A stretch of 64,000 bases of DNA. Source: Candidatus Latescibacterota bacterium (GTDB lineage Bacteria > Latescibacterota > UBA2968). Under the pieces are notes generated by a model. It was not told the DNA's origin. It ran no database searches and was given only the letters and a program-made list of their open reading frames with translations. The translations under genes were made by a program, and so were the position numbers. The DNA lies in the NCBI GenBank assembly GCA_965204745.1, contig OZ242010.1:4736001-4800000 (forward strand). The letters are read 5' to 3'. Shown one piece after another: positions 19,777-32,101 of this stretch. Every line of letters starts with the position of its first letter. Positions within the stretch are counted from its first letter, which is position 1.

Positions 19777-20733
19777 TGGGACCTACCCCCTAACCCCCGT
19801 TACTCGTTTCACTCGTTGTAGGCTACGCCTGTGCCTGCGAGAAAGGGGGAACAGTGATCGGTTTTGCGAGGGTATTGATGAGGGTTTTTAATCGCTTTAT
19901 GCCCTATCGGGACCTACCCCCCTAACCCCCCTTCCTAAAAGGAAGGGGGGAACAGTGATCGGTTTTGCGAGGGCTTGCGTGGGGGATTTTAATCGCTTTA
20001 TGCCCGCGCTCAAAGCCATCGAAATAGCCCTTGCGTTCAGCTATCAAGCAAGCCCTACTCCCCCTTTCCTCGCAGGAAAGGGGGCCGGGGGGATAGGTCC
20101 CATTGGGCAACGAGGATCGGTTTTGCGAGGGCTTGCGTGGGGGATTTTAATCGCTTTATGCCCGCGCTCAATGCCATCAGAACGGCCATTGATATAAGCC
20201 ATCAAAGGAGCTTTACTCCCCCTTTCCTCGCAGGAAAGGGGGCCGGGGGGATAGGTCCCATTGGGCAATGAGGATCGGTTTTGTGAGGGTATTGATGAGG
20301 GTTTTTAATCGCTTTACGCCCGCGCTCAATGCCATCGAAATAGCCCTTGCGTTCAGCTATCAAGCAAGCCCTACTCCCCCTTTCCTCGCAGGAAAGGGGG
20401 CCGGGGGGATAGGTCCCATTGGGCAATGAGGATCGGTTTTGCGAGGGTATTGATGAGGGTTTTTAATCGCTTTACGCCCGCGCTCAATGCCATCAAAACA
20501 GCCCTTGCGTTCAGCTATCAAGAAAGCCCTACTCCCCCTTTCCTCGCAGGAAAGGGGGCCGGGGGGATAGGTCCCATTGGGGAACAGTGATCGGTTTTGC
20601 GAGGGTATTGATGAGGGTTTTTTAATCGCTTTATGCCCGCGCTCAATGCCATCAGAACGGCCATTGATATAAGCCATCAAAGGAGCTTTACTCCCCCTTT
20701 CCTCGCAGGAAAGGGGGCCGGGGGGATAGGTCC
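19777..20733. repeat. Tandem array of ~158-bp hairpin-containing (BIME-like) units
   Basis: ACTCCCCCTTTCCTCGCAGGAAAGGGGGCCGGGGGGATAGGTCC recurs at about 20057, 20215, 20373, 20531 and 20690, with two recurring linker types. Confidence 0.9.
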
Positions 20734-23552
20734 AGCCTCCCCTGTTCTTCGGTCTTCATCCGCACGAGGATGTCCTGCCACGCTTCGACCAGATGGTTGA
20801 AGATGACCGCGTTTTGGGACTCGCCTTTGCGGTCGTAGTGTTCGTAGAGGATGCGCGCCAAGCGTTCGATAGACTCCACGCTGCCATCCATGGCGCGGGC
20901 CACTTGCGCTGCGCCTTTAAGACCTTCGCCATCGCGCTTGGGGTCCAAGTGATACGCCATGCGGAAACAGCCCTCCCACGCGGTCATCTTGGGCAGGCGG
21001 AGCGGACGGTCAGGGCCGTATTCATCGACCGGTAGCAGGCGCACTCGCCCGGCCCCGGCGGTGAGCAGATCGCGCATGGCTAGGGCGTTGATGGATACGT
21101 TCTTGGCTTGGGCGAGCACCTCGGCGTCGCCGTACTCGCCTTCGCCATAGCCATTCTGCCGAAGCCAGTCCATGCAAAACCGGCTCTCCGCGTCCAAGTT
21201 GCCCTGTTCCCGCTGGTGGTATTCGGCGATGACGCGGTTGATCTCGGTCAATGCCTCGCGCACGGGCACGGGTTCGCCATCGATGGTCTCCACGCTGCGG
21301 TACTGGGAGTAGATTTTCATGCCCGGCCCAATGGCTGCTTGCGCCAAATCCACCGGGGCGATGTGGCCCTCCCGCGTGAGGTGGTCGAGGTCCGCGGGCA
21401 AATCGCGCTCTAAGGCGTCCAAGAACTGGCGGCGCGTTGCCATGGGCGCGTCCTCATCTCGCGGCCGGCAGACCAAGACGACAGACGAGGCCAGCGCGTT
21501 GGTTCCGAGCGAAACGGAACGATTGCCCAACTCGGTTCGCATCGGCCAAGTGCCGATGATCTGAAAACCGGCATTCACCAGCGCGGACAACATCGTATCC
21601 CAACCCGTAGAAGTTTTGCCGCCGCGTTCCATCTCCTGTTGTTTGTAAGCGTAGAAAATGGACGACGGAAATTCCGGGCTACAACGCTTTCGTATCAACC
21701 GCAAGGTTTTGTTCAACAAGTCCTCAAACCGCTCGCGGGAATTTTCAAACCGAAACGGCGTGGCAATCATCTCTTCCGCTTTGGGTACCAGAATGCCGGC
21801 AAACAGATCAGGGTAGATGTCGCGCAACAATGGGCGCAACCATACATAGAAGAAGTCGGAGAGATCTGCGTAACCAATGTTGTCGTAATAAGGCGGATCC
21901 GTAACGATGACGGGACCCGCTTCGGCATAGATGGTCGTTGAGGCGTCGGCTTGGTGCGTTTTGCCTGCATTCGCATCGGAAGGGAGACGCTCGACAGCCT
22001 TTGATATCCATTCAATGTGAGCGAGCCAGTTTCCTGTTGAGTTAGAAAAGGGATTCGATTCGGCAAAATCCCAAACCATCGGGATTGCCTGACGTGCGAA
22101 AATGTTTCTTAACTTTTCACCCGGTACATTCCATGTCGCAAAACTGGAACAATAGTCCGCATTTTTGCCAACCGCCAACGCGAGATAGGTGCGAATCGCA
22201 TTGGCGTATTCCTCATCTGCCCCGTCTTTCATCACCAAATCCCCGACCTCTTTCAGCAGATCGCTAAACGCGGTCAAAGCGGTTAGTTGACGCTCGGTGA
22301 AAAGCTGATGCCAGTGCGTCAACCCGTAAGCCTGCACTCTGAAACCCAAGGCTTGCTTGGGTAGATTGCCAACAGGTCGCCATTTGGGTTTGGCTTTCTG
22401 CGCTGTGCGGATATGCAACTCAGTCGGCGACGCGAACAGCCGTTTGCGATTTCCTTCGGCGACGATGGCGGTCATCACCTCGCCCATCAGGCCCGCCCGC
22501 GCTTGCTCGCGCACAGAGTCCAATCGCACGCCTGCGTTACACGCGATACAGGTCGCGCCATTGCGGTTCACAGTGCCGCCCGTGGGGACGCCGTCGCTGT
22601 GGTCTTGCACCACAAACGAAATGTCCGCGCCCTCGACGACCGGGCGTATCCAGTGCTCATTGCCCTTTTTCTTCGACACTTGGAAGGTTCGCATCAGGGG
22701 CATTGCCGCGCCGCATGTCGGGTTTGGGCAGGGGATTGTGCGCGCCCACAGCCACGCGATCACCGTGGCCTCGCCGCCATCCATCAATCGCACCTTGGGG
22801 TAGAAATGCCCGACGCGCTCGTGTGCCCGTTCGCGCATCCACCGGCCGTAATACCGAATGTCGTCTGCAAGCCCGGCCGCGCCGCGCCATCCGCGGGTTT
22901 TTTTGGATTTACTTTTTTTGGTGGTTATGCCCATCGGGTCCGCATCCGGATTGATCGGTGGGCGGTTGTGGAATTTGGGCGGCAACTCGATCAGGGCTTT
23001 GGTGATGAGCACCGCGACCGGGTTGAGGTCCGTGCCGACTGCTTTCAGCCCTAGGCGTTGCGCCTCCAGCGGAATCGAGCCACCGCCCGAGAAAGGGTCG
23101 TAAATGGGCAATGCCCTGTCCGCCAAAATCTGAAGGGGAGAATAATTATTCTCCCCAACATCCGCCTCCGAGGTGGGCGCTGTCTCGCCGCGGGCGCGGG
23201 CAACAGATCGGGCGATCTCGTATCGCGCCTCTCGCAACAGCGCCTGCACATCGGTCTTGCGCTCGTCCGTGCTCTCCCACTTGACCAACTCGCGGATGAT
23301 CCCGTGCAACCGCTCGCGCTCGGCCCGCTGTGCCTCCTCTGTGGGAAATTCCTCCTCACACGCCGACGGGTCATCCACCATACTGGCAAAAATGACCGCC
23401 CGACACGCCGCCAATGGCCGCCGCGCCCACCACAAATGCAGGGTTGAGGGATGGCCGTGCCGGATGGATTTCTCGCGGGCCGACTCAGCGTTGATCTCCG
23501 CTAAGGGCAGATCGACCTCGATGAGTTTTTTGCGTACTTTTGATTGTTTCAA
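20688..23552 (-). CDS. DUF1156 domain adenine DNA methyltransferase
   Basis: HLWWARRPL, DPFSGGGSIPLEA, a Zn ribbon and TDPPYYDN. The last codons run into the repeat array. Confidence 0.92.
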   Translation of the reverse strand: MKQSKVRKKLIEVDLPLAEINAESAREKSIRHGHPSTLHLWWARRPLAACRAVIFASMVDDPSACEEEFPTEEAQRAERERLHGIIRELVKWESTDERKTDVQALLREARYEIARSVARARGETAPTSEADVGENNYSPLQILADRALPIYDPFSGGGSIPLEAQRLGLKAVGTDLNPVAVLITKALIELPPKFHNRPPINPDADPMGITTKKSKSKKTRGWRGAAGLADDIRYYGRWMRERAHERVGHFYPKVRLMDGGEATVIAWLWARTIPCPNPTCGAAMPLMRTFQVSKKKGNEHWIRPVVEGADISFVVQDHSDGVPTGGTVNRNGATCIACNAGVRLDSVREQARAGLMGEVMTAIVAEGNRKRLFASPTELHIRTAQKAKPKWRPVGNLPKQALGFRVQAYGLTHWHQLFTERQLTALTAFSDLLKEVGDLVMKDGADEEYANAIRTYLALAVGKNADYCSSFATWNVPGEKLRNIFARQAIPMVWDFAESNPFSNSTGNWLAHIEWISKAVERLPSDANAGKTHQADASTTIYAEAGPVIVTDPPYYDNIGYADLSDFFYVWLRPLLRDIYPDLFAGILVPKAEEMIATPFRFENSRERFEDLLNKTLRLIRKRCSPEFPSSIFYAYKQQEMERGGKTSTGWDTMLSALVNAGFQIIGTWPMRTELGNRSVSLGTNALASSVVLVCRPRDEDAPMATRRQFLDALERDLPADLDHLTREGHIAPVDLAQAAIGPGMKIYSQYRSVETIDGEPVPVREALTEINRVIAEYHQREQGNLDAESRFCMDWLRQNGYGEGEYGDAEVLAQAKNVSINALAMRDLLTAGAGRVRLLPVDEYGPDRPLRLPKMTAWEGCFRMAYHLDPKRDGEGLKGAAQVARAMDGSVESIERLARILYEHYDRKGESQNAVIFNHLVEAWQDILVRMKTEEQGRLDLSPRPPFLRGKGE

Positions 23553-23566
23553 GGGTGCTCCTTTTT

Positions 23567-23880
23567 GGGACCTATCCCCCGGCCCTCGTTATTCGCTTCG
23601 CTCATTGTAAGGCTTACGCCTGTGCCTACGAGGAAAGGGGCGACAATGCAGGCGGACACTTGGAACTTTTTCTTTTACGCCTGTGCCTACGAGGAAAGGG
23701 GAGTAACGTTCCTTTGATGGCTTAAGTTGTTCCGATGGCGTTGAGCGCGAGGGCCTGTGCGAATGGTTTTCTCGTTGTCCCCTGAGAATACCAAGTTCTC
23801 ATGGCGTTGAGCGCGGGGCCTGTGCGAATGGTATTCTCATTGTCCCCTGAGAATACCAAGTTCTCATGGCGTTGAGCGTG
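23567..23880. repeat. Hairpin-repeat remnants plus a ~66-bp tandem repeat (about 2.3 copies)
   Basis: 23567..23640 resembles 19777..19850; ATGGCGTTGAGCG occurs at 23735, 23801 and 23866. Confidence 0.75.
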
Positions 23881-23939
23881 GGGGCCTGTCCCTACGGGTG
23901 ATGGGGTGCCGCGACTGACTTTTGCCGGATTCTCTTTTT

Positions 23940-24386
23940 TAAATCGTGTTGACATTTTTTTTTTCGTTCCGCACAAATTAGCAAATGTGTTGCTTGCTCA
24001 TCTAAGGCGTTTGGTCCTATAGCCTCGTTGGTTGCCTCCGATGCCTTCGGCGACCTACTTTTTTTCAACAGCAAAAAAAAGTAGGCAAAAAATGCCGCTC
24101 TCAAACGCCGAGAGGCTTGCACAGCGCAAATCGCTTTTGTAACAGAACGATATGAGTCAGCCTGTAAAGTGGGTTGCATAATGGATGTTGGTTGCCAGAC
24201 GGACTTGCGCGCTGTGCGTGATGGCTTTAGCTGATGGGCTTTTGCGATGGCACTTGTTGGGATGCCTGCTTTGAACTGCGGAACGTCCGTGAATTTGCAG
24301 ACCGAGAGCATATCCTGCGATAGAGTTTGATTTTCTCGATAAACCGCCCATTCAGTTGCATTGCTCGTAAATGTCAACATAACCTA
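23940..24386 (-). mobile_element. IS5-like MITE, inverted copy with different internal cargo
   Basis: Both arms resemble the reverse complement of the arms of 41246..41655; TIR AAATGTCAACATAACCTA ends at 24386. Confidence 0.75.
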
Positions 24387-25043
24387 ACACCACTGCGGCG
24401 GCTTTCTGAGGACATAGCCGCTGGCCTTGGCGACCCGCTCTGGCAACTGACTGTCGCTGATTATCCTGCGGCCTATTGTGAACGATGCAGTCGCCGTTTT
24501 GCGAAGTTGTTTGGAAACGCGATTAGGCGGAAAGGCGACGACCACCCGTTTCTTTGGATACCGGTGGCGAACCGCACTTGTCGGGCGTGTCAAATCGCTA
24601 TCGCCTGAGATGATAATCGCCGTGTCGAAAACATCGTCTTGAGCATCGCCGAGCAGTTCAACCGCGATATTCACGTCGGTCATCTTCTCCTCGTAGGTCT
24701 CTTCAACCGCTCCGCACCGGAAGCAAGTTCTGCTTTTTGGCAGAAAGTGTCCGTAGTGGATATGCAAGTCCGGCAATGTTGTTAGGGCCTGCAAGTAAAT
24801 ATCTTGCCGAACCTGTTGATCCATGTCATCGTCGCGCGGCGCGATTTTTGCAGTAAAATACCTGACCATGACCAACCGTTGGCCGGGGCGCAACAACTTT
24901 TCAGATAGACGACGCAGGTCGAGCCAGTAGTAGTGCCGCCAGCCCTTGGACTTGAGGCCGTAGTAGAGATTGAACCCGTCAACGTACACCGACACCCGTT
25001 GTATCGCTGAAGCTACTGGATTCTGAAAATTTAGCCTTGACAT
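24384..25043 (-). CDS. NYN domain (PIN-fold) ribonuclease-like protein
   Basis: VYVDGFNLYYG, EEKMTDVNIA, IISGDSDL and a CxxC (CFRC). True start may be a few codons downstream. Confidence 0.9.
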   Translation of the reverse strand: MSRLNFQNPVASAIQRVSVYVDGFNLYYGLKSKGWRHYYWLDLRRLSEKLLRPGQRLVMVRYFTAKIAPRDDDMDQQVRQDIYLQALTTLPDLHIHYGHFLPKSRTCFRCGAVEETYEEKMTDVNIAVELLGDAQDDVFDTAIIISGDSDLTRPTSAVRHRYPKKRVVVAFPPNRVSKQLRKTATASFTIGRRIISDSQLPERVAKASGYVLRKPPQWC

Positions 25044-25071
25044 ACACGCCCTACCTTTGTATTATTTTGAT

Positions 25072-25137
25072 ACCCCCCCAACGATACCGTCGTTGGCCCG
25101 ACGCTCCTCAGTTCTCAATGAGGGGCGTTTCTTTTTT
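25072..25137 (+). ncRNA. Predicted ~65-nt small RNA, unit 1
   Basis: Starts 7 nt after the -10 box: AC7, stem CCAACGA/TCGTTGG, terminator ACGCTCCTCA/TGAGGGGCGT and a T-tract. Confidence 0.6.
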
Positions 25138-25275
25138 GCATCTCCAGTTTCCCCACCTACGCATTCGCTACCGGTTCCTCTCCGGATCCTACCTTTGTAT
25201 TATTTTCAGACCTGTTGTTTTTTTTATTTTCAAAAAAGGATTGACGTACACGCCCTACCTTTGTATTATTTTGAT

Positions 25276-25343
25276 ACCCCCCCATTGATAGTATCTTTGG
25301 GCCGACGCTCTTCAGTTCTCGCTGAGGGGCGTTTCTTTTTTTT
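25276..25343 (+). ncRNA. Predicted small RNA, unit 2
   Basis: Same layout; variant stem CCCA-TT-GAT/ATC-TT-TGGG. Confidence 0.55.
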
Positions 25344-25476
25344 CTGGTTTCCCCACCTACGCATTCGCTACCGGTTCCTCTCTGGATCCTACCTTTGTAT
25401 TCTTTTCAGACCTGTTGTTTTTTCTCGATTTAAAAAAAGGATTGACATACACGCCCTACCTTTATATCATCTTGAT

Positions 25477-25541
25477 ACCCCCCCAGCGCTAGTACCGCTG
25501 GCCCGACGCTCCTCAGTTCTCGATGAGGGGCGTTTCTTTTT
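25477..25541 (+). ncRNA. Predicted small RNA, unit 3
   Basis: Same layout; variant stem CCAGCG/CGCTGG (compensatory change relative to unit 1). Confidence 0.6.
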
Positions 25542-25617
25542 TGCCTCTCCCGTCTTGCCTCTCCCGTCTTGCGTCTTGTATCTTTTCTCACCTTTCGCAG
25601 TTCCCACTTGATGCGAA

Positions 25618-26391
25618 TTAAGAGGCCAATCTGATGTACCTGTCAATATCGGTGACAGATTTTTCCCGAAAGTCGTTCAGTGCCGGATACTGGGTATCGG
25701 CGTTCTTGGTCAGGTAGGCTCTTTCCTTTTTTCCCAACGCTTCAAAGTCCTCATAAACGACAAGGCTGAAGAACGGCAACTTCTCTTTTTCAAACTCCAA
25801 CAGAGCAATGGCGACATTTTTGGCCTTGTCGTTGCCCGGCACGCCGAAAACATAAAAGTCAACATGTTCGTATTTTAGAAACCAATCTACACTGATGAGA
25901 TATTCAGGGAGCGGGGAATGGTCCGCACGGGGATTAAACCGCTCGAGTTCGGTCGTGACGTATTCCTCCAAATCGTCGTAAAACGCACTGCGGATAATCT
26001 CTCTGCTCCAATAGCGCATATTGCACACTTTTTGCGCGCAACCCGCAAATTGCAATATACTCTCATAGAGTCTGTCCACAGGCGTATCGAGATAGAGATG
26101 GCCCTGATCGTTATGAACGCCGTTGTTGATGAGAATACTGTCAAAAATTCTCTGTCGGGTGTCGGTATTCACCTCGTAAGTGTAGGACAAGCGCATCAGC
26201 GTCATGCCAAAATCGCAAACGCGAACATATCCCGTGCGCTCGGTGCTATCCTGCAAATAGATGTCCACCATATCTCCATCCTCGTGGAGTATGGGCGCGA
26301 TCAACTGGTAATGCCCCGGGCGGCGCTCGTAGAAATCAAAGCCCGCCGCTATCGTGCCGCTCAATGAGGTCCTAATGCGATTGATGTCCAT
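25618..26391 (-). CDS. DUF1828-like domain protein
   Basis: PILHEDGDMVDIYL...RVCDFGMTLMRLSY pattern. Confidence 0.7.
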   Translation of the reverse strand: MDINRIRTSLSGTIAAGFDFYERRPGHYQLIAPILHEDGDMVDIYLQDSTERTGYVRVCDFGMTLMRLSYTYEVNTDTRQRIFDSILINNGVHNDQGHLYLDTPVDRLYESILQFAGCAQKVCNMRYWSREIIRSAFYDDLEEYVTTELERFNPRADHSPLPEYLISVDWFLKYEHVDFYVFGVPGNDKAKNVAIALLEFEKEKLPFFSLVVYEDFEALGKKERAYLTKNADTQYPALNDFREKSVTDIDRYIRLAS

Positions 26392-26535
26392 TTTTTTAGT
26401 TTCCCCGCCTACGCATTCGCTACCGGTTCCTCTCCGGATCCTATTCGCGCTGTGAACCTGTCTGAACAGCGACACGTTGAAAACCGATCCGCGTCTTTCG
26501 TCGTTTCGCGCTTCCGCGCTGGACCGACAATCCCT

Positions 26536-27021
26536 TTATCTCGACTTTGATGCCTTGTTGATAGCTTCAGCCAGAGGGCTACCGCATCTCAGCAAATGAA
26601 TGTTGGATCGCTGGTTTCTGAAGCGAATTTGATTGGTTGATTGTTGCAATTTGCGAAGTTCAATGCGATGCACTTTGCCGCCAAAAACAGCGATGGAAAG
26701 AAAAGAAACCTGCTCGTTTCTGGGGATGATTTTCTCGGCAAATTTCGCGCCTGCTTGAAGTTGCTCGATAACTGCTCTGGCCCCGAGACCACCCTTTTTC
26801 AATTCCATCGGCACGAGCCAAACCCGGTCTGAACCTCCGATGAAGATGTAGTCGCATCTTGTTTCGTTCTGTCCAATCGGGAGTTTATCACAATCCATTT
26901 GAATGAGGAAAAACGGTTGTGGTGCATTTTTCAAGCCAACCGAACACCCGCTCATCCCACACTTCCGCGCATGGCATGTCTTGTGAATAGTGGATTGGAT
27001 TCTGCTAACGAGATTTGCCAT
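26536..27021 (-). CDS. Hypothetical protein, possible PD-(D/E)xK nuclease fold
   Basis: Overlaps the ATPase stop; RCDYIF...VPMELK...EQLQ pattern. Confidence 0.6.
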   Translation of the reverse strand: MANLVSRIQSTIHKTCHARKCGMSGCSVGLKNAPQPFFLIQMDCDKLPIGQNETRCDYIFIGGSDRVWLVPMELKKGGLGARAVIEQLQAGAKFAEKIIPRNEQVSFLSIAVFGGKVHRIELRKLQQSTNQIRFRNQRSNIHLLRCGSPLAEAINKASKSR

Positions 27022-28633
27022 GTGCGTTTCCCTCGCCTATCCGACTGGATATTTCCGCATAGTCATTGTACGTGCTGAGGCTGACCTCATCGAAACCGGA
27101 CTGGAAACCGCCAAAATCCACGTCGAGCGGTATTTCCTTTACGACTGACCCCTTGGGCCGTTGCTTCGGCTCGAATAGCCATGCTCCCACTTCGTCTCGG
27201 CTGAGTGCAAAGTCCGCGCTTGCGACACCCCGCCTTTTTGCTTTCGGCAGTTCCGATAACAAGACCAGATTCGCCAATTCTTCTAACACCCACTCGCTGT
27301 GCGTGGTGAGCATCACGCGGACGCCAGAACGCACGACCGCCGCGAGTTGGCGGATAAACGCGACCTGCATCTCCGGGTGCAAGTGAGACTCGGGTTCCTC
27401 GATAATCAGCACATCGCCCGGTTGAACCACATGGCGCAAGTACAACACGACCGGGGCCAACTCCGATACCATTGACGACGCATTCATCAACGGCAGATCC
27501 CGCCGCCAGTTAGTCGGACGATAGACAAACGAAGGATAGTCAATTTCCGACCTCTCAACGCGGACAGTCCCCCCCAATAACGCCCGTTCCAAATCTTGAG
27601 CGAGGACATTCTCGCGTTCGGGGTTGCGTCGAGATGAAGAGGCCAAGGCAACGAGTTGTTCCAGAAAATCCCCGAGAACCCCGGAGAGCACCGGCATCGG
27701 CGTCTCGCGTCTTAGTCCTACACGAGACGCGCTCGCGATCAACCCGCGCACAGCCACTTGATGCGCGTGCATGACGCCGGCGCGGTCAGCGGGAAGGTAA
27801 TACGCCGGGCGACTCAAGGGGCCGATGATGTTAGGAACAACATCTTTGGCAAGCGTTTTAAGCAAATCACCCACAGCACGTTTAGCAAAGTCATCTTTCT
27901 TGTCCAGCCGATTAAATAGCCAATTGACGTTCCTGTTGGTCATCTCCACGGGCCCCAACTTGCGTAATCCTTCATTCATTGCCTCTACCAGCCAATCAGT
28001 GATCCAATTCTCAATAAGGTAGGTATCCTTCAAAGCCACTTGCAAGGACAAGGTATTTGGAATCGAAACATCTAATTTAGCACCTTGCTCTATCACCATA
28101 ACTTCGTGCCCATCAGAGACATTGCATCCGGCGGCCTTTGAGCTATTGCAACGCAGTGAAAATTTTGCCCTGCCATCACTCGGATGACGGATCAAATTTT
28201 TTCCCTTATCCACCCCAAAACATCTGGCGATTTCACTCTCTAAGTTTTCGCTCAAATGCATGGCATTGTTGAGAATTGAGCGTACCAACGCCGCAATGGA
28301 TTCTGGTAATTTAATTGGGTCGGGCTTTTCAGGTTCAGCGGTTTCTAAGCCCGCAATCGTTTCTTTCACCCAAGCAAAAATATTTGAAATGTCATCTTTT
28401 GACACAGTCCGATGTCGCTCGGACAAAAACCGCATGTTGGCCCTTCTGAAACTGGTATCATCGAAGTTTTCACTAAAAAACTGATGCAGTGCGTAAATCA
28501 GAATCGCCAAGTAGGATTTGCCGGTGTTGCTCGGGCCGACGAAGACCGTCAGCGGGCGCAAGTCGATTTCTGCCTTGGCGATGGGGCCGAAGTTGGAGAC
28601 CCTCAGCGCGAGGGATTTTGTGTTGGTCGCCAT
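27005..28633 (-). CDS. AAA_15/AAA_21-type ABC-like ATPase
   Basis: NFGPI, GPSNTGKS, IIEEPESHLHP and TTHS. Confidence 0.9.
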   Translation of the reverse strand: MATNTKSLALRVSNFGPIAKAEIDLRPLTVFVGPSNTGKSYLAILIYALHQFFSENFDDTSFRRANMRFLSERHRTVSKDDISNIFAWVKETIAGLETAEPEKPDPIKLPESIAALVRSILNNAMHLSENLESEIARCFGVDKGKNLIRHPSDGRAKFSLRCNSSKAAGCNVSDGHEVMVIEQGAKLDVSIPNTLSLQVALKDTYLIENWITDWLVEAMNEGLRKLGPVEMTNRNVNWLFNRLDKKDDFAKRAVGDLLKTLAKDVVPNIIGPLSRPAYYLPADRAGVMHAHQVAVRGLIASASRVGLRRETPMPVLSGVLGDFLEQLVALASSSRRNPERENVLAQDLERALLGGTVRVERSEIDYPSFVYRPTNWRRDLPLMNASSMVSELAPVVLYLRHVVQPGDVLIIEEPESHLHPEMQVAFIRQLAAVVRSGVRVMLTTHSEWVLEELANLVLLSELPKAKRRGVASADFALSRDEVGAWLFEPKQRPKGSVVKEIPLDVDFGGFQSGFDEVSLSTYNDYAEISSRIGEGNAHGKSR

Positions 28634-28789
28634 GTTGAATCCTCCTGTGTGTCGCGAGTTTGTCACGAGTTTAGTCGGTGTTTTTCAGGCGGTACACCCG
28701 CTTGTTGATCGCGGCTTTGAGAATCCTTTGAGCGTACTCAATGAAGCCAGCCGCGATCCGATTGCAGGCCCGAGCGGTGAATAGATACG

Positions 28790-31700
28790 CTAATCGTCGG
28801 ATGTGTTCAAGTTCAAATCGAGTTGATGGCTATTCTCGCGCACCGCGCGGGTCGTGCTTTCGGAGAAGCCATCGGCCTTGTGGGCGCGGATGGTGATTTC
28901 GACCGTGATTTCGCCGCCATCGTCTCGCAGGTTGCGGATGATCTCATCGCTCAACATCCGGGCGTCGTCCAAAGAGATTTCGCCCTGCATGGTCTTGGTC
29001 GCGGTGATGCGCCTAGGGCCGCGTGGCGCAGATGGTTCAACGCCCTGTGGTTGTCGGATGTTGTACGGTTCGGCATCCTCCGGCGATGGTTCTGCCGGCG
29101 GGGTTTCTTCTTGAACGAGTTGCGCCATTTCCGGATTGACCAACAGGCCCGAGTCGCCTTCTGCCACGCCGGATGGGGAAGTCGCCATGTCAGTGCCAAA
29201 GCGCAGGTTGTGGTAGTCCTCGTTCTGGTACGCTTCGGCGTACCCAAAGTTGCGGGCCGGCACCCCGCGTTTGATGCAGTCCAACAAGATGGTCTTGTTT
29301 CGCAGGCGGTGCATGTACACGTAGCTCGTCATCATCTCCCAAAGGGCGTCGATGTGGATGTGGTCGTGGTACGCCTTATTTTGCCACACGTATTGCGCGA
29401 GCATACTCGCCAGCGATACCGGGGAGATGGCATCTACGAGGGCCTCTTGCGCGATGAATTTTTCAAACGCGCTGTTGGCGATCTCGCCCGTGTCCTCGGA
29501 CGCGGTTTGGAACGTGGAAAACCCATACTCGGCCCGTTGCGGATCGGCCTGCGTGGGCGCCATGGCCCAGCGATAGGCGCGCACCAGTGCGGTGTCCACC
29601 TCGCCTCGCGCTTGCTTCAAACTGCTGCGCGCCTGGTGCAAGCGGTCGCCCGCGAGATTTGCGATGCGCCGTTCCCCGTGGATGATGGAATCCCACGCCA
29701 GATACGTGCGCGCATTCGCCCGGAGACTGCGGAGGTCGTCATTTCTCGCGGTCAAGAACAGCAGGGTATTGCGGTGAACGCGCGGGGCCTGGCCGCGGTT
29801 TTGGAGAATGTCCTGCGCGACGGGCGTGGCCTCGTCCGTCTCTGCGGCTCGGCTCGGCAGGGACTGGCTCGGATGCAGGATGATGAGACGCACCCAATCG
29901 TCGTCTGGCACCGCAGCGGAACCCTCCGGACAGACGAGCACCTCCCGGCGTTGTCCGATATTCTCGCCCAACTCGCGCACGATGAACTCGGCGAGGGCGC
30001 GGTCGCTCAACTGCGCGGCGCGGTCCGTGGCGACTTTGTTCAGATTTTCCTCGGCGTGAAAGTAATAGCGGTCGTCGTCCGTGTACAAATAATACAGGTC
30101 GCCCACCATCCGTTGCAGCGCGTCATTGTACGCGGAAATCCCGTGCCCCGGTTGCACCACGCCCAAGTGGATGTGGCGGCGGTCGATGCCCTTGACCGCG
30201 CCGCTAGGCGCGCTGCCCAAGAAGATCGCGCGTGCCAAGCGACGGGCCGCGCCGCCCACCTCGGCAAAACGCTGCACCGTGGCGTCGATCCCATCGGCTT
30301 GGGAATGGTCGCTGTCCACCTCGGACAGCACGGGCCGCCATTGCCCCGGCAGCAGGCGGTCAAACTCATTGCCCAAAGAACTGTGGCGCAGCGGCATGGT
30401 GGCGGGCATGATCAAGGGGCCGGCGTCGTTTTGGCGGTACAAGTAGCTGATGCAATTCGCCATCATTCGCAACACCCCGCGCGTGCGTTGGAACTGCGGG
30501 ATGGACGACCAGTCCGCGTAGAGCCGGTCGAAAATTTCCGGGTGGATGGGATAGCAGTCCTTCAGCCGCTGCAAGTATCGGTCTTCGCCGACCCCGGCCG
30601 GATACTCCCCACGGTTCTGCCCGTACATGCGGGAAAAGGCTTGGCAAGTGCGGTCGCGCTCGGCCGCATCCAACTTGTCGCCGAACAGCCGGCGGCGCAC
30701 CACGGCGAACGCCTCGCTGATTTCCAAGGGCTCCCAAACCGCTTCGATGCGCCCGAAAATGTGCTCCAATCGCGCGAGTGCTTCTTGCCCGGCGTCGCCG
30801 CCCAATTCCATGTCGCTTTCCGGCAAGGTGATCACCAATACCACATCGGCCGCGCGGCTGACCGACTGGCTGAGGGCTTGCAAGAAAGTATAGAGGTTGC
30901 CCTCGCGCGTGCTCGGCACATTGCGGACGTACGCCACCAATTCGTCCATCAAAATGAGGGATGGGCCGACCGCGCGGAACAAATCGTCGAGTTGCGCGCC
31001 GCCCGGGGACGTGCCTTCGCGTGCGGCCCGCCCGATGATCTCATACGCCTCCTGCCCGCCCAACTGATACGCCATCTCGCCCCAAAGCGCGTTGCGCGGG
31101 TCCCCGCTTGGCGTGGTTCGCGTATCCGTGGGCGCGAGGTGCGTGCCATCCAAAACCGCGACCGCAGTTTGGGGAATGTCACGAGGAGTCAATCCCGCTT
31201 CTGCGATGAGGGCCGCGATTTCCCGGCTGCTTTGCGAGGTGTCGTTGAGCAAGGCGTCCGCGCTGTTGACCAAGTGGTACAGGGCGATGAGGCTGTGGGT
31301 CTTGCCCCCGCCGAACCCGGTCTTGGTCTGAATCACCGGGTCCCCGCCATTGCCGCTGAGCCGCTTGAGCGCGTTCACGAGCAAGGTGCGAATGCCGGGG
31401 GTGATGTACGTCTGCCGGAAGAAGTTGACCGGGTTGCCATACTCCGAGGCCAGGGCGCGCCCGTCATGCACTTGCTGGAGATCCGCGGCAAATTCGGCTT
31501 CTTGGAACGTGCCCAAAGCCACATCCGAACTCGGGGGCATGACGTCTCGCCAGGCCTTGAGGTCGATAGATGAGCGGGGCTTGCGCGCCGGCTTGGCGTT
31601 TTCGGACTCGGCGGGTGTTTCGCGCGGGGCGGCTTCGCTGACGAGCCGATCCCGGATGCCTTCCACTTCGCGCTTCGCGTCAGATGCGTTGATGCGCCCG

Positions 31701-32101
31701 AGCACGTCGGCAATGTCGTACAAGCGGCTCCGGGCGTATTCTGCGTCCATGTCCCGCGTGTTCGGATGCGCGACTTCGTTGCGGACAGTGACGATCATCC
31801 ACAACAAGCTCTGCACGGTTTTGTCCTCCTTGAACACCCGCCCAAAGACCGCGTGCCACTGCCTGCTGACCAAGTTGGGAAAGTCGTTAATGTCAATCGC
31901 GTCCTCAACGCTGTTGCCCTGCGCCAAGGTCTGGCGAAATTGCTCGGCCTGCCGGTCGTTCAGGGAATTGCTGATCACCTCTTCAACCCGCCTGCCCTTA
32001 ACTTGCTTCAAGTAGCGGACGATGAACGGCCGCATCGCGTCTCGGTAAATATCCAGCGCGTCGGAAAGCGCGTCTCGGTTTGGGCGATCCGTTTTTGCCA
32101 T
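28790..32101 (-). CDS. DUF499 ATPase with N-terminal Swt1-like HEPN domain
   Basis: N-terminal RNEVAH (RxxxxH), EFAADL, TGFGGGKTH, MDELVAY, YPIHP and FQRTRGVLR. Confidence 0.9.
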   Translation of the reverse strand: MAKTDRPNRDALSDALDIYRDAMRPFIVRYLKQVKGRRVEEVISNSLNDRQAEQFRQTLAQGNSVEDAIDINDFPNLVSRQWHAVFGRVFKEDKTVQSLLWMIVTVRNEVAHPNTRDMDAEYARSRLYDIADVLGRINASDAKREVEGIRDRLVSEAAPRETPAESENAKPARKPRSSIDLKAWRDVMPPSSDVALGTFQEAEFAADLQQVHDGRALASEYGNPVNFFRQTYITPGIRTLLVNALKRLSGNGGDPVIQTKTGFGGGKTHSLIALYHLVNSADALLNDTSQSSREIAALIAEAGLTPRDIPQTAVAVLDGTHLAPTDTRTTPSGDPRNALWGEMAYQLGGQEAYEIIGRAAREGTSPGGAQLDDLFRAVGPSLILMDELVAYVRNVPSTREGNLYTFLQALSQSVSRAADVVLVITLPESDMELGGDAGQEALARLEHIFGRIEAVWEPLEISEAFAVVRRRLFGDKLDAAERDRTCQAFSRMYGQNRGEYPAGVGEDRYLQRLKDCYPIHPEIFDRLYADWSSIPQFQRTRGVLRMMANCISYLYRQNDAGPLIMPATMPLRHSSLGNEFDRLLPGQWRPVLSEVDSDHSQADGIDATVQRFAEVGGAARRLARAIFLGSAPSGAVKGIDRRHIHLGVVQPGHGISAYNDALQRMVGDLYYLYTDDDRYYFHAEENLNKVATDRAAQLSDRALAEFIVRELGENIGQRREVLVCPEGSAAVPDDDWVRLIILHPSQSLPSRAAETDEATPVAQDILQNRGQAPRVHRNTLLFLTARNDDLRSLRANARTYLAWDSIIHGERRIANLAGDRLHQARSSLKQARGEVDTALVRAYRWAMAPTQADPQRAEYGFSTFQTASEDTGEIANSAFEKFIAQEALVDAISPVSLASMLAQYVWQNKAYHDHIHIDALWEMMTSYVYMHRLRNKTILLDCIKRGVPARNFGYAEAYQNEDYHNLRFGTDMATSPSGVAEGDSGLLVNPEMAQLVQEETPPAEPSPEDAEPYNIRQPQGVEPSAPRGPRRITATKTMQGEISLDDARMLSDEIIRNLRDDGGEITVEITIRAHKADGFSESTTRAVRENSHQLDLNLNTSDD

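Follow-up and report, generated by a model that had tools for sequence, protein, structure and literature searches.

We studied a 64,000-nt stretch of DNA (the window) from a Candidatus Latescibacterota bacterium (GenBank assembly GCA_965204745.1, contig OZ242010.1, positions 4,736,001 to 4,800,000) that carries a gene for an NYN-domain nuclease of the HEC-09 family and, divergent from it, an array of three small-RNA units. Judged from comparison of many genomes, the RNA encoded by these units is a conserved and well-supported new structured RNA family, and the NYN (PIN-like) nucleases of the HEC-09 family have it as an obligate genetic partner. We propose that the RNA acts in trans on the nuclease as an antitoxin-like inhibitor, a reading to which we assign a probability of about 0.5. 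The NYN gene itself is already known as HEC-09; new here are the partner RNA, the census of the pair across phyla, the assignment of the RNA strand, the evidence on promoters and the asymmetry in the retention of the two partners.

BLAST searches in 40 relatives returned RNA matches adjoining NYN homologues, from which 30 copies were aligned by hand (alignment A2) and used to build a covariance model with two helices (R1). The census was made on 80 loci that had been fetched solely for encoding an NYN homologue, with a hit threshold of E < 1e-3. We found the RNA with R1 at 79 of these 80 loci. At the remaining locus (L105) a broader covariance model, R2, run without filters, gave a weak divergent match at the expected place (26.9 bits, E-value 3.2e-6). 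By record titles, the loci come from Latescibacterota, Chloroflexota, Acidobacteriota, Gamma-, Beta- and 'Delta'-proteobacteria, Planctomycetota, Actinomycetota, Bacteroidota, Chlorobiota, Ignavibacteriota, KSB1, Edwardsbacteria, Neomarinimicrobiota and Deinococcota, that is, from at least 12 phylum-level groups. A first-pass annotation, made from the letters of the window alone, had joined the RNA units and the NYN gene in one module and had named a covariance model of the regions upstream of NYN homologues and an Rfam search as ways to check it; the linkage held and proved specific, and the model revealed a family rich in covariation.

The RNA is about 60 nt long and consists of a short C-rich 5' tail, a 7-bp hairpin 1, a junction, a terminator hairpin and a U-tract. 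In an alignment of 110 copies with 107 distinct rows (A3), 98.1% of the cells were paired compared to 82.4% after shuffling. Double changes were present at 12 of the 15 base pairs, in 255 cells, and the covariation score was reached by none of 500 shuffles; with the registers slid, pairing fell to 36-53%. Alignment A3 was fitted to the model and is therefore biased towards structure. The hand-made alignment A2 showed the same trend, with 96.4% of the cells paired and double changes at 5 pairs.

The arms of hairpin 1 covary throughout the family, and the loop and the junction are conserved. The conserved features are an initiating A, a pentaloop of the UAGYA type closed by G-C and A-U pairs, the CCGACG junction, the foot of the terminator stem and a UUUCUUUU tail. 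Because G-U pairs are frequent (72 at one base pair in the foot of helix 2) and would be A-C mismatches on the NYN strand, we place the RNA on the strand opposite to NYN.

The search of Rfam 15 gave no match at the gathering score in the whole window. Between 24900 and 25700 the best match, at chance level, was ctRNA_pGA1 (23.1 bits against a gathering score of 45), and nothing was found at the RNA in 11 loci from other phyla. Likewise, the literature search returned no paper that connects NYN or HEC-09 with a partner RNA, subscription-only papers and supplements being outside the search. The earlier suggestion of an undescribed architecture thus stands for the RNA partner, which is absent from Rfam 15 and from the literature found, but not for the NYN gene, which is the HEC-09 of PADLOC.

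For more distant relatives, the model scores were not significant. Six loci with NYN paralogues of 32-41% identity, from the same genus, had no significant RNA match, and such paralogues, together with enterobacterial and Leptospira plasmid genes, scored 7-17 bits. By eye, these distant NYN genes have a similar leader on their own strand: it begins C-rich and continues with a hairpin, a junction of the CGCGA type and, just ahead of the start codon, a second, terminator-like hairpin. The look-alike leaders (L036-L040, with that of L037 at about 1425-1496; L143, 2400-2491; L141, 270-410) belong to paralogues of 229-245 amino acids in the genus of the window, to a Leptospira plasmid and to enterobacterial plasmids of 3.4 kb.

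In the window, the array extends from 25037 to 25545 on the plus strand, with units of about 200 bp starting at 25037, 25241 and 25442. A repeat search returned a 124-nt core in three copies, at spacings of 204 and 201 bp and with 79-85% identity to the reference copy; the three whole units, once aligned, had a mean column identity of 82%. The consensus scan of the plus strand found exactly three promoter-like sites (1.3 +/- 1.0 in shuffled sequence), and there were three terminator-like hairpins with T-tracts on the same strand, one per unit, compared to about 1.6 sites in shuffled sequence. The predicted transcripts of about 69 nt fold into two hairpins each, with energies from -26 to -28 kcal/mol and z-scores from -4.1 to -5.25, and none of 200 shuffles was as stable. 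The stem of hairpin 1 is uninterrupted in units 1 and 3 and interrupted in unit 2. The differences between units fall mainly in this stem, i.e., in paired positions.

The promoter of unit 1 (25037-25065, plus strand; TTGACA-17-TATTAT) scored 11 out of 12. Its -35 box, at 25037-25042, lies over the NYN start codon, the ATG being the complement of 25041-25043. RNA unit 1 (25069-25140, plus strand) is made up of a short C-rich 5' tail, hairpin 1, a CCCGACG junction, the terminator hairpin and a U-tract; it scored 75.0 bits with R1 (E-value 5e-18), has a predicted fold of -28.1 kcal/mol (z -4.75) and, being the copy adjacent to NYN, carries an atypical hairpin 1 loop, UACCG. Unit 2 has its promoter at 25241-25269 (plus strand; TTGACG-17-TATTAT, score 10) and its RNA at 25273-25345 (plus strand), with the interrupted hairpin 1 and a UAGUA loop (70.0 bits, E-value 1.3e-16; -26.2 kcal/mol, z -5.25). 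In unit 3, the promoter at 25442-25470 (plus strand; TTGACA-17-TATCAT, score 11) is followed by an RNA at 25474-25545 (plus strand) with the loop region CUAGUAC (79.6 bits, E-value 2.4e-19; -27.3 kcal/mol, z -4.11), whose hairpin is identical to that of the copy adjoining the intact NYN gene of a relative, G018. Since the R1 scores are high and the promoters and terminators are complete, all three units look functional. A genome-wide search found no RNA copies in the source genome besides these three. The first-pass description of the array was borne out in each of its parts: three self-contained units, a near-consensus promoter in each, a two-hairpin transcript (put at about 65 nt) with a terminator, stems intact in units 1 and 3 and interrupted in unit 2, and the overlap of the first -35 box with the NYN start codon.

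Spacer 1 (25141-25240) contains a 19-nt copy (25188-25206) of the promoter spacer and -10 region; neither a -35 box nor an RNA accompanies it. Spacer 2 (25346-25441) is 87% identical to spacer 1 and has the same partial promoter copy at 25388-25406. We considered the spacers as a remnant of a simple NYN deletion and rejected the idea: a partial promoter copy of 19 nt plus a weak match of 17 nt (76% identical) to the NYN interior does not amount to one. Directly 3' of RNA unit 3, a 14-bp unit (TTGCCTCTCCCGTC) is present in exact tandem at 25541-25568 and continues to about 25580; short tandem runs related to it occur at no fewer than 65 other places in the source genome. The metagenome contigs of four DNA-type runs are short pieces and give no view of variants in the copy number of the array. 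In run X4, one low-depth contig (depth 2.55, side 21) connects 24379 with 25556 through 19 other letters; it lies between two dispersed repeats and was judged too weak to count as an empty site. A 259-nt skip within the array, from 25134 to 25394 (depths 3 and 2.6, side 26), was equally weak.

Across the family, a sigma-70-like promoter with a score of at least 8 out of 12 was found upstream of 78 of the 110 copies, and in 43 of those 78 the -10 element stops 3-4 nt short of model position 1. In Bacteroidota and Ignavibacteriota copies we saw, by eye, a TAnnTTTG-type element at this same place, and in Actinomycetota copies a TAnnnT-type element, which we take to be the promoter consensuses of those lineages. 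The copies that abut a preceding unit (L058, L064, L065, L067) have no promoter; because they also lack the conserved A, this A fits the role of a transcription start. On the NYN strand of 70 loci, the best promoter score was 7.01 compared to 6.98 in shuffled sequence, with 8 of the 70 loci reaching 9 out of 12. Judged by these sequence elements, the RNA is probably transcribed independently, from its own promoter.

The placement of the RNA with respect to NYN is variable. At 70 of the 80 loci the nearest RNA copy is divergent, with its 5' end at most 140 nt from the start of the NYN match, so that the RNA promoter covers the NYN start region; at two more loci the divergent RNA is 155-160 nt away. 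Three loci (L073, L098, L117) have the RNA on the NYN strand, directly upstream, and in the first two of these the order is promoter, RNA, terminator, ribosome-binding site (Shine-Dalgarno) and NYN. At one locus (L043) there are four tandem RNA copies, all of them downstream and convergent, and at three loci the only RNA is 1.4-2.3 kb upstream. One of the 80 loci (L051) has RNA both upstream and downstream of NYN. Further examples are a Thermus plasmid with a divergent RNA (60 bits), a Mycobacterium prophage with a convergent downstream RNA (26.8 bits) and a gut phage-like contig with a same-strand RNA (23-31 bits). The sequence of the RNA is retained whatever its position and strand relative to NYN.

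Two or more RNA copies were present at 9 of the 80 loci, so tandem copies, as seen in the window, are not supported as the norm. At three loci (L064, L065, L067) the copies form head-to-tail arrays with a period of about 60 nt, which leaves no space for separate promoters.

The retention of the two partners was surveyed in 131 other genomes of the window's class, where NYN was counted as absent if no protein match was found at E <= 1e-8. The RNA was present in 32 of the 131 genomes (33 of 132 with the window's own), with a distribution patchy by genus. All 18 full-length NYN genes of the HEC-09 clade in the class, one of them with an internal TAG, have the RNA just upstream on the opposite strand. 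Among the 55 RNA genes of the class, 21 are located by a full-length NYN gene, 8 by an NYN fragment and 26 have no NYN; thus, 34 of the 55 are without an intact NYN. The surroundings of the orphan RNAs were inspected at 16 places, and the other orphans rest on the missing protein match.

Some of the orphans are syntenic. In several species of one genus (g6; L125, L126, L130, L133, L135) the orphan RNA is situated between an operon of GntR and ABC-ATPase genes and molybdate-transporter-like genes; a short palindrome of the GTGC..GCAC type is seen just 5' of the RNA in this orphan family. In the window's own genus, three RNA-only loci (G015, G013, G002) share their downstream flank with two loci that have both NYN and RNA (G020, G014) and with one that has an NYN fragment and RNA (G019). 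In G018 (C1:3498894-3501542; L004, L017) NYN fragments covering residues 4-33, 82-218 and 1-89 alternate with three intact-looking RNA genes, which suggests tandem cassettes whose nuclease genes decayed and whose RNAs were kept. The RNA and its promoter region are identical in a locus of the window's genus (L026, genome G012) and in a metagenome-assembled genome labelled Latescibacterota and assigned to another phylum (L041); this identity would be due either to a very recent transfer or to a binning error. Altogether, the lifestyle of the module appears to be selfish or defence-like: it is patchy, is found on plasmids and in a prophage, forms tandem or degenerate cassettes and, in the window, sits between HmaC and HmaB.

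The NYN protein has 219 amino acids (24384-25043, minus strand), and its identification as an NYN nuclease in the first-pass annotation was upheld. The Pfam NYN domain PF01936 matched residues 16-187 with an E-value of 1.8e-14 (54.9 bits against a cut-off of 24.2), and the PADLOC HEC-09 profile PDLC04163 (PADLOC-DB v2) matched nearly from end to end, at profile positions 2-202 of 203, with an E-value of 2.7e-86. In 21 aligned homologues D22, E119, K120, D123, D148 and D150 are invariant, as are C107 and C110, which form a CxxC pair. Because the acidic residues and the CxxC pair are invariant, the enzyme looks active and under selection. Comparison by sequence with solved structures gave chance-level matches only (E-values 0.14 and 0.38, the second being a LabA-like protein). 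HEC-09 stands for Hma-embedded candidate 9 and was defined by Payne et al. (bioRxiv 10.1101/2024.01.29.577857), who describe a MARF1-like NYN fold with three conserved aspartates shared with MARF1.

The comparisons above directly support the existence of the RNA family and its structure, strand and promoters, together with its linkage to NYN. What the RNA does to the nuclease is read from them with less certainty. We favour a trans-acting RNA recognised via its conserved structure because this one explanation covers every arrangement seen, be the RNA divergent, on the NYN strand, downstream, in several copies or orphaned. Three observations match what is expected if the RNA is an antitoxin and the nuclease its toxin: the RNA has a strong promoter and NYN no recognisable one, NYN was never found without the RNA whereas the RNA often outlives NYN, and RNA copies were gained repeatedly. 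The patchy, mobile occurrence on plasmids and in defence islands fits with the same reading.

We infer that the RNA binds NYN and inhibits it, and that NYN left to itself is toxic. The RNA would be made in excess from a strong promoter (three of them in the window) and NYN would be present at a low level; once the RNA supply collapsed, e.g., upon phage infection or loss of the cassette, the nuclease would be freed. The working principle would be that of a type III-like toxin-antitoxin or abortive-infection module with an unrelated toxin fold and an unrelated RNA. The first-pass annotation had spoken of an RNA-controlled or RNA-guided NYN module and of stockpiled variant antitoxins. RNA control is the best reading of the comparative data, but guidance is unsupported: the approximately 15 nucleotides that vary make up the arms of hairpin 1, and these arms covary family-wide. 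The idea of a stock of variants is unsupported for the same reason, with the loop and the junction conserved and no guide-like hypervariable segment in the RNA.

Several observations weigh against an antitoxin-like inhibitor. The absence of NYN genes without RNA is equally expected if the RNA is a required cofactor, and the conserved-looking orphan RNAs may point to a separate function of the RNA. Antisense control or interference between promoters may play a part, given that the RNA promoter lies over the start region of NYN at most loci. The window lacks what defines a type III system, namely a toxin of the ToxN/AbiQ type and short upstream repeats that share the toxin transcript. Moreover, HEC-09 expressed in E. 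coli gave no protection against any phage tried, and the relevant passages of the preprint report no toxicity (10.1101/2024.01.29.577857).

The alternative that survives best, possible and in our view doubtful, is that the RNA is a required activating subunit of an NYN ribonucleoprotein, serving as a scaffold, a specificity element or a guide, with the nuclease inactive or untargeted alone. The complete linkage (80 of 80 loci and 18 of 18 NYN genes of the class) would be expected of such a subunit, and so would the independence of the RNA from strand and position; the strong conservation of the loop and the junction suggests recognition by a protein, and the short single-stranded C-rich 5' tail could serve as a seed. 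However, the RNA has no hypervariable guide-like segment, its variable positions being those of a paired stem. The 34 of 55 class RNA genes without an intact NYN, some of them at syntenic sites, would be odd for a cofactor that has lost its enzyme, and a strong RNA promoter next to no recognisable NYN promoter better suits a brake. We consider unlikely a bolder form of this idea, in which the RNA would be the specificity or sensing subunit of an RNA-directed or RNA-gated NYN ribonuclease outside CRISPR and Argonaute. The C-rich tail or the pentaloop would then recognise a conserved nucleic-acid or phage-derived target, and extra or orphan copies would provide alternative programming or immunity against incoming cassettes.

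Control of NYN in cis, in the manner of type I systems, is also improbable. Here, transcription of NYN would start within the RNA gene and the RNA would be antisense to the resulting 5' leader, or the two promoters would overlap. The prevalent geometry agrees with this (70 of 80 loci divergent within 140 nt, the promoter over the NYN start region and, in the window, the -35 box over the ATG), and divergent pairs of a small RNA and a toxin exist among type I systems. On the other hand, the same-strand loci L073, L098 and L117 and the downstream-only locus L043 keep the RNA without any antisense relation to the NYN 5' end. Cis-antisense control needs no conservation of primary sequence, loop and covarying stems across phyla; it does not account for the persistence of orphan copies, and its usual target, a small membrane peptide, is not what a 219-amino acid enzyme resembles.

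Self-regulation of the nuclease, with the RNA as a target or decoy substrate and no role in toxin-antitoxin action or defence, seems quite unlikely to us. Ribonuclease genes can be regulated via their own leaders, and at the same-strand loci the NYN mRNA would indeed have the motif as its 5' leader, ahead of a terminator and a ribosome-binding site; the distant NYN paralogues and plasmid genes, too, have a similarly built same-strand leader, by eye. However, most loci have a separate transcript on the opposite strand with its own promoter and terminator, the orphans and the multi-copy arrays are left unexplained, and the matches of the distant paralogues are not significant (10-17 bits).

It is very unlikely that NYN and RNA are chiefly a selfish mobile cassette with NYN as a homing-type nuclease and the RNA engaged in mobility or site choice. 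Such a cassette would account for the patchy spread across phyla, for near-identical RNAs in distant records and for the tandem and degenerate cassettes of G018. Still, no direct repeat brackets the cassette in the window, and a search for longer relatives, aimed at fused or intein-borne forms, returned 4 proteins, none with an intein family in its precomputed Pfam domains, a nearly empty result that is weak evidence; mobility is, moreover, compatible with an addiction module and typical of one. Finally, an open reading frame of 184 amino acids (25057-25611, plus strand) would turn the array into a protein gene with internal repeats, since units of 204 and 201 bp are multiples of three and keep the frame open throughout all three, but we dismiss it as an artefact: single-copy loci elsewhere lack such a frame, copy lengths differ by non-multiples of three in the hairpin 2 loop, conservation tracks base pairs including G-U rather than codons, and each unit has its own promoter and terminator.

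The surroundings of the module in the window agree with the defence island proposed in the first-pass annotation. An HmaB-like DNA methylase gene (DUF1156 in Pfam; 20688-23552, minus strand; PADLOC HmaB E-value 1.6e-300) and an HmaC-like ATPase gene (DUF499; 28790-32101, minus strand; PADLOC HmaC E-value 2.8e-241) flank the NYN-RNA module and three other genes. A search of six further open reading frames did not find an HmaA-like helicase. The three other genes between HmaC and HmaB are a DUF1828/PDC-M24B-like gene (25618-26475; Pfam and PADLOC), an open reading frame of 161 amino acids without a family (26536-27021) and an AAA_15 ATPase gene most like PD-T4-4_A (27005-28666; E-value 2e-39). 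The second and third of these share 17 nt and could together be a two-gene system.

Repeats are abundant in this region. A dispersed repeat of about 90 bp (24298-24390) is located directly 3' of the NYN stop; elsewhere in the source genome it has at least 40 scored copies with 86-92% identity (237 candidates at first look), and in the metagenome contigs it shows very high depth. An open reading frame of 162 amino acids without a Pfam match (23892-24380, minus strand) overlaps this repeat and may be spurious. Dense tandem and dispersed repeats at 19900-20700 and 23600-23900 flank the HmaB-like gene; they include a period of about 158 bp with repeated open reading frame translations, a 65-bp tandem at 23751-23880 and a 27-nt repeat at 23614 and 23675.

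Defence tools annotate HEC-09 as a one-gene candidate, and the one test reported for it showed no activity. If it is really an RNA-protein module, then tests and annotations blind to the RNA miss half of it. Once validated, the module would bring both a toxin fold and an RNA class that are new among RNA-antitoxin systems and would be among the most widely spread modules of this kind, given its presence in at least 12 phylum-level groups by record titles. The RNA family, with its rich covariation and lineage-adapted promoters, is ready for curation, and the NYN-RNA pair offers a compact, testable model for the restraint of a PIN-like ribonuclease.

With respect to known systems, the closest for the protein is HEC-09 itself: the window NYN matches its profile end to end, has the invariant acidic residues and lies between HmaB-like and HmaC-like genes, which resembles the placement between Hma core genes in the preprint. 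The difference lies in the partner RNA, which goes unmentioned in the main text of the preprint; there HEC-09 is handled as a single-gene candidate, and the words 'ncRNA' and 'non-coding' do not occur (10.1101/2024.01.29.577857).

The likeness to type III systems (ToxIN, AbiQ/antiQ, CptIN, TenpIN) is in the pairing of a nuclease gene with a small structured RNA under a strong promoter and in the location of the modules in defence islands and on plasmids. In form only, and for a single unit, it extends to the order promoter, RNA, terminator and nuclease on one strand in L073 and L098, and in part to the head-to-tail RNA units of L064, L065 and L067. The toxin fold, however, is NYN/PIN-like and not that of ToxN/AbiQ. 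For the window NYN, no match to the ToxN, AbiQ, CptN or TenpN families was found; Pfam (E <= 0.01) returned NYN only, and PADLOC returned HEC-09 and a weak NYN match only. The antitoxins of type III systems are built as pseudoknot repeats of approximately 34-37 nt, whereas the RNA described here is about 60 nt long, has two hairpins and its own terminator, and is usually single-copy and divergent. The units of the window, located on the strand opposite to NYN with a promoter and a terminator each, are not co-transcribed upstream repeats. Since the defining features of the family fail, the NYN-RNA system is, on present comparisons, not a member of type III, though it would work like a type III pair.

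Among type I systems, divergent pairs of a small RNA and a toxin include tisB/istR-1, shoB/ohsC, zor/orz and symE/symR. Here, too, a divergent small RNA gene with a strong promoter stands beside the start of the partner gene, a nuclease. The partner is, however, a 219-amino acid enzyme and not a small hydrophobic peptide, and the sequence and structure of the RNA are conserved across phyla. For an RNA on the NYN strand or downstream, antisense pairing with the 5' end of the NYN mRNA is impossible; such loci argue that pairing may not be needed.

Tandem self-contained small RNA genes are represented by NsiR1 of Nostocales and by the CcsR or 'cuckoo' RNAs of Alphaproteobacteria. The array in the window shares with them its anatomy only, repeated units of a promoter, a short hairpin RNA and a terminator. 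In contrast to them, the RNA described here has no Rfam match and is linked to a single family of nuclease genes, with which it travels across phyla.

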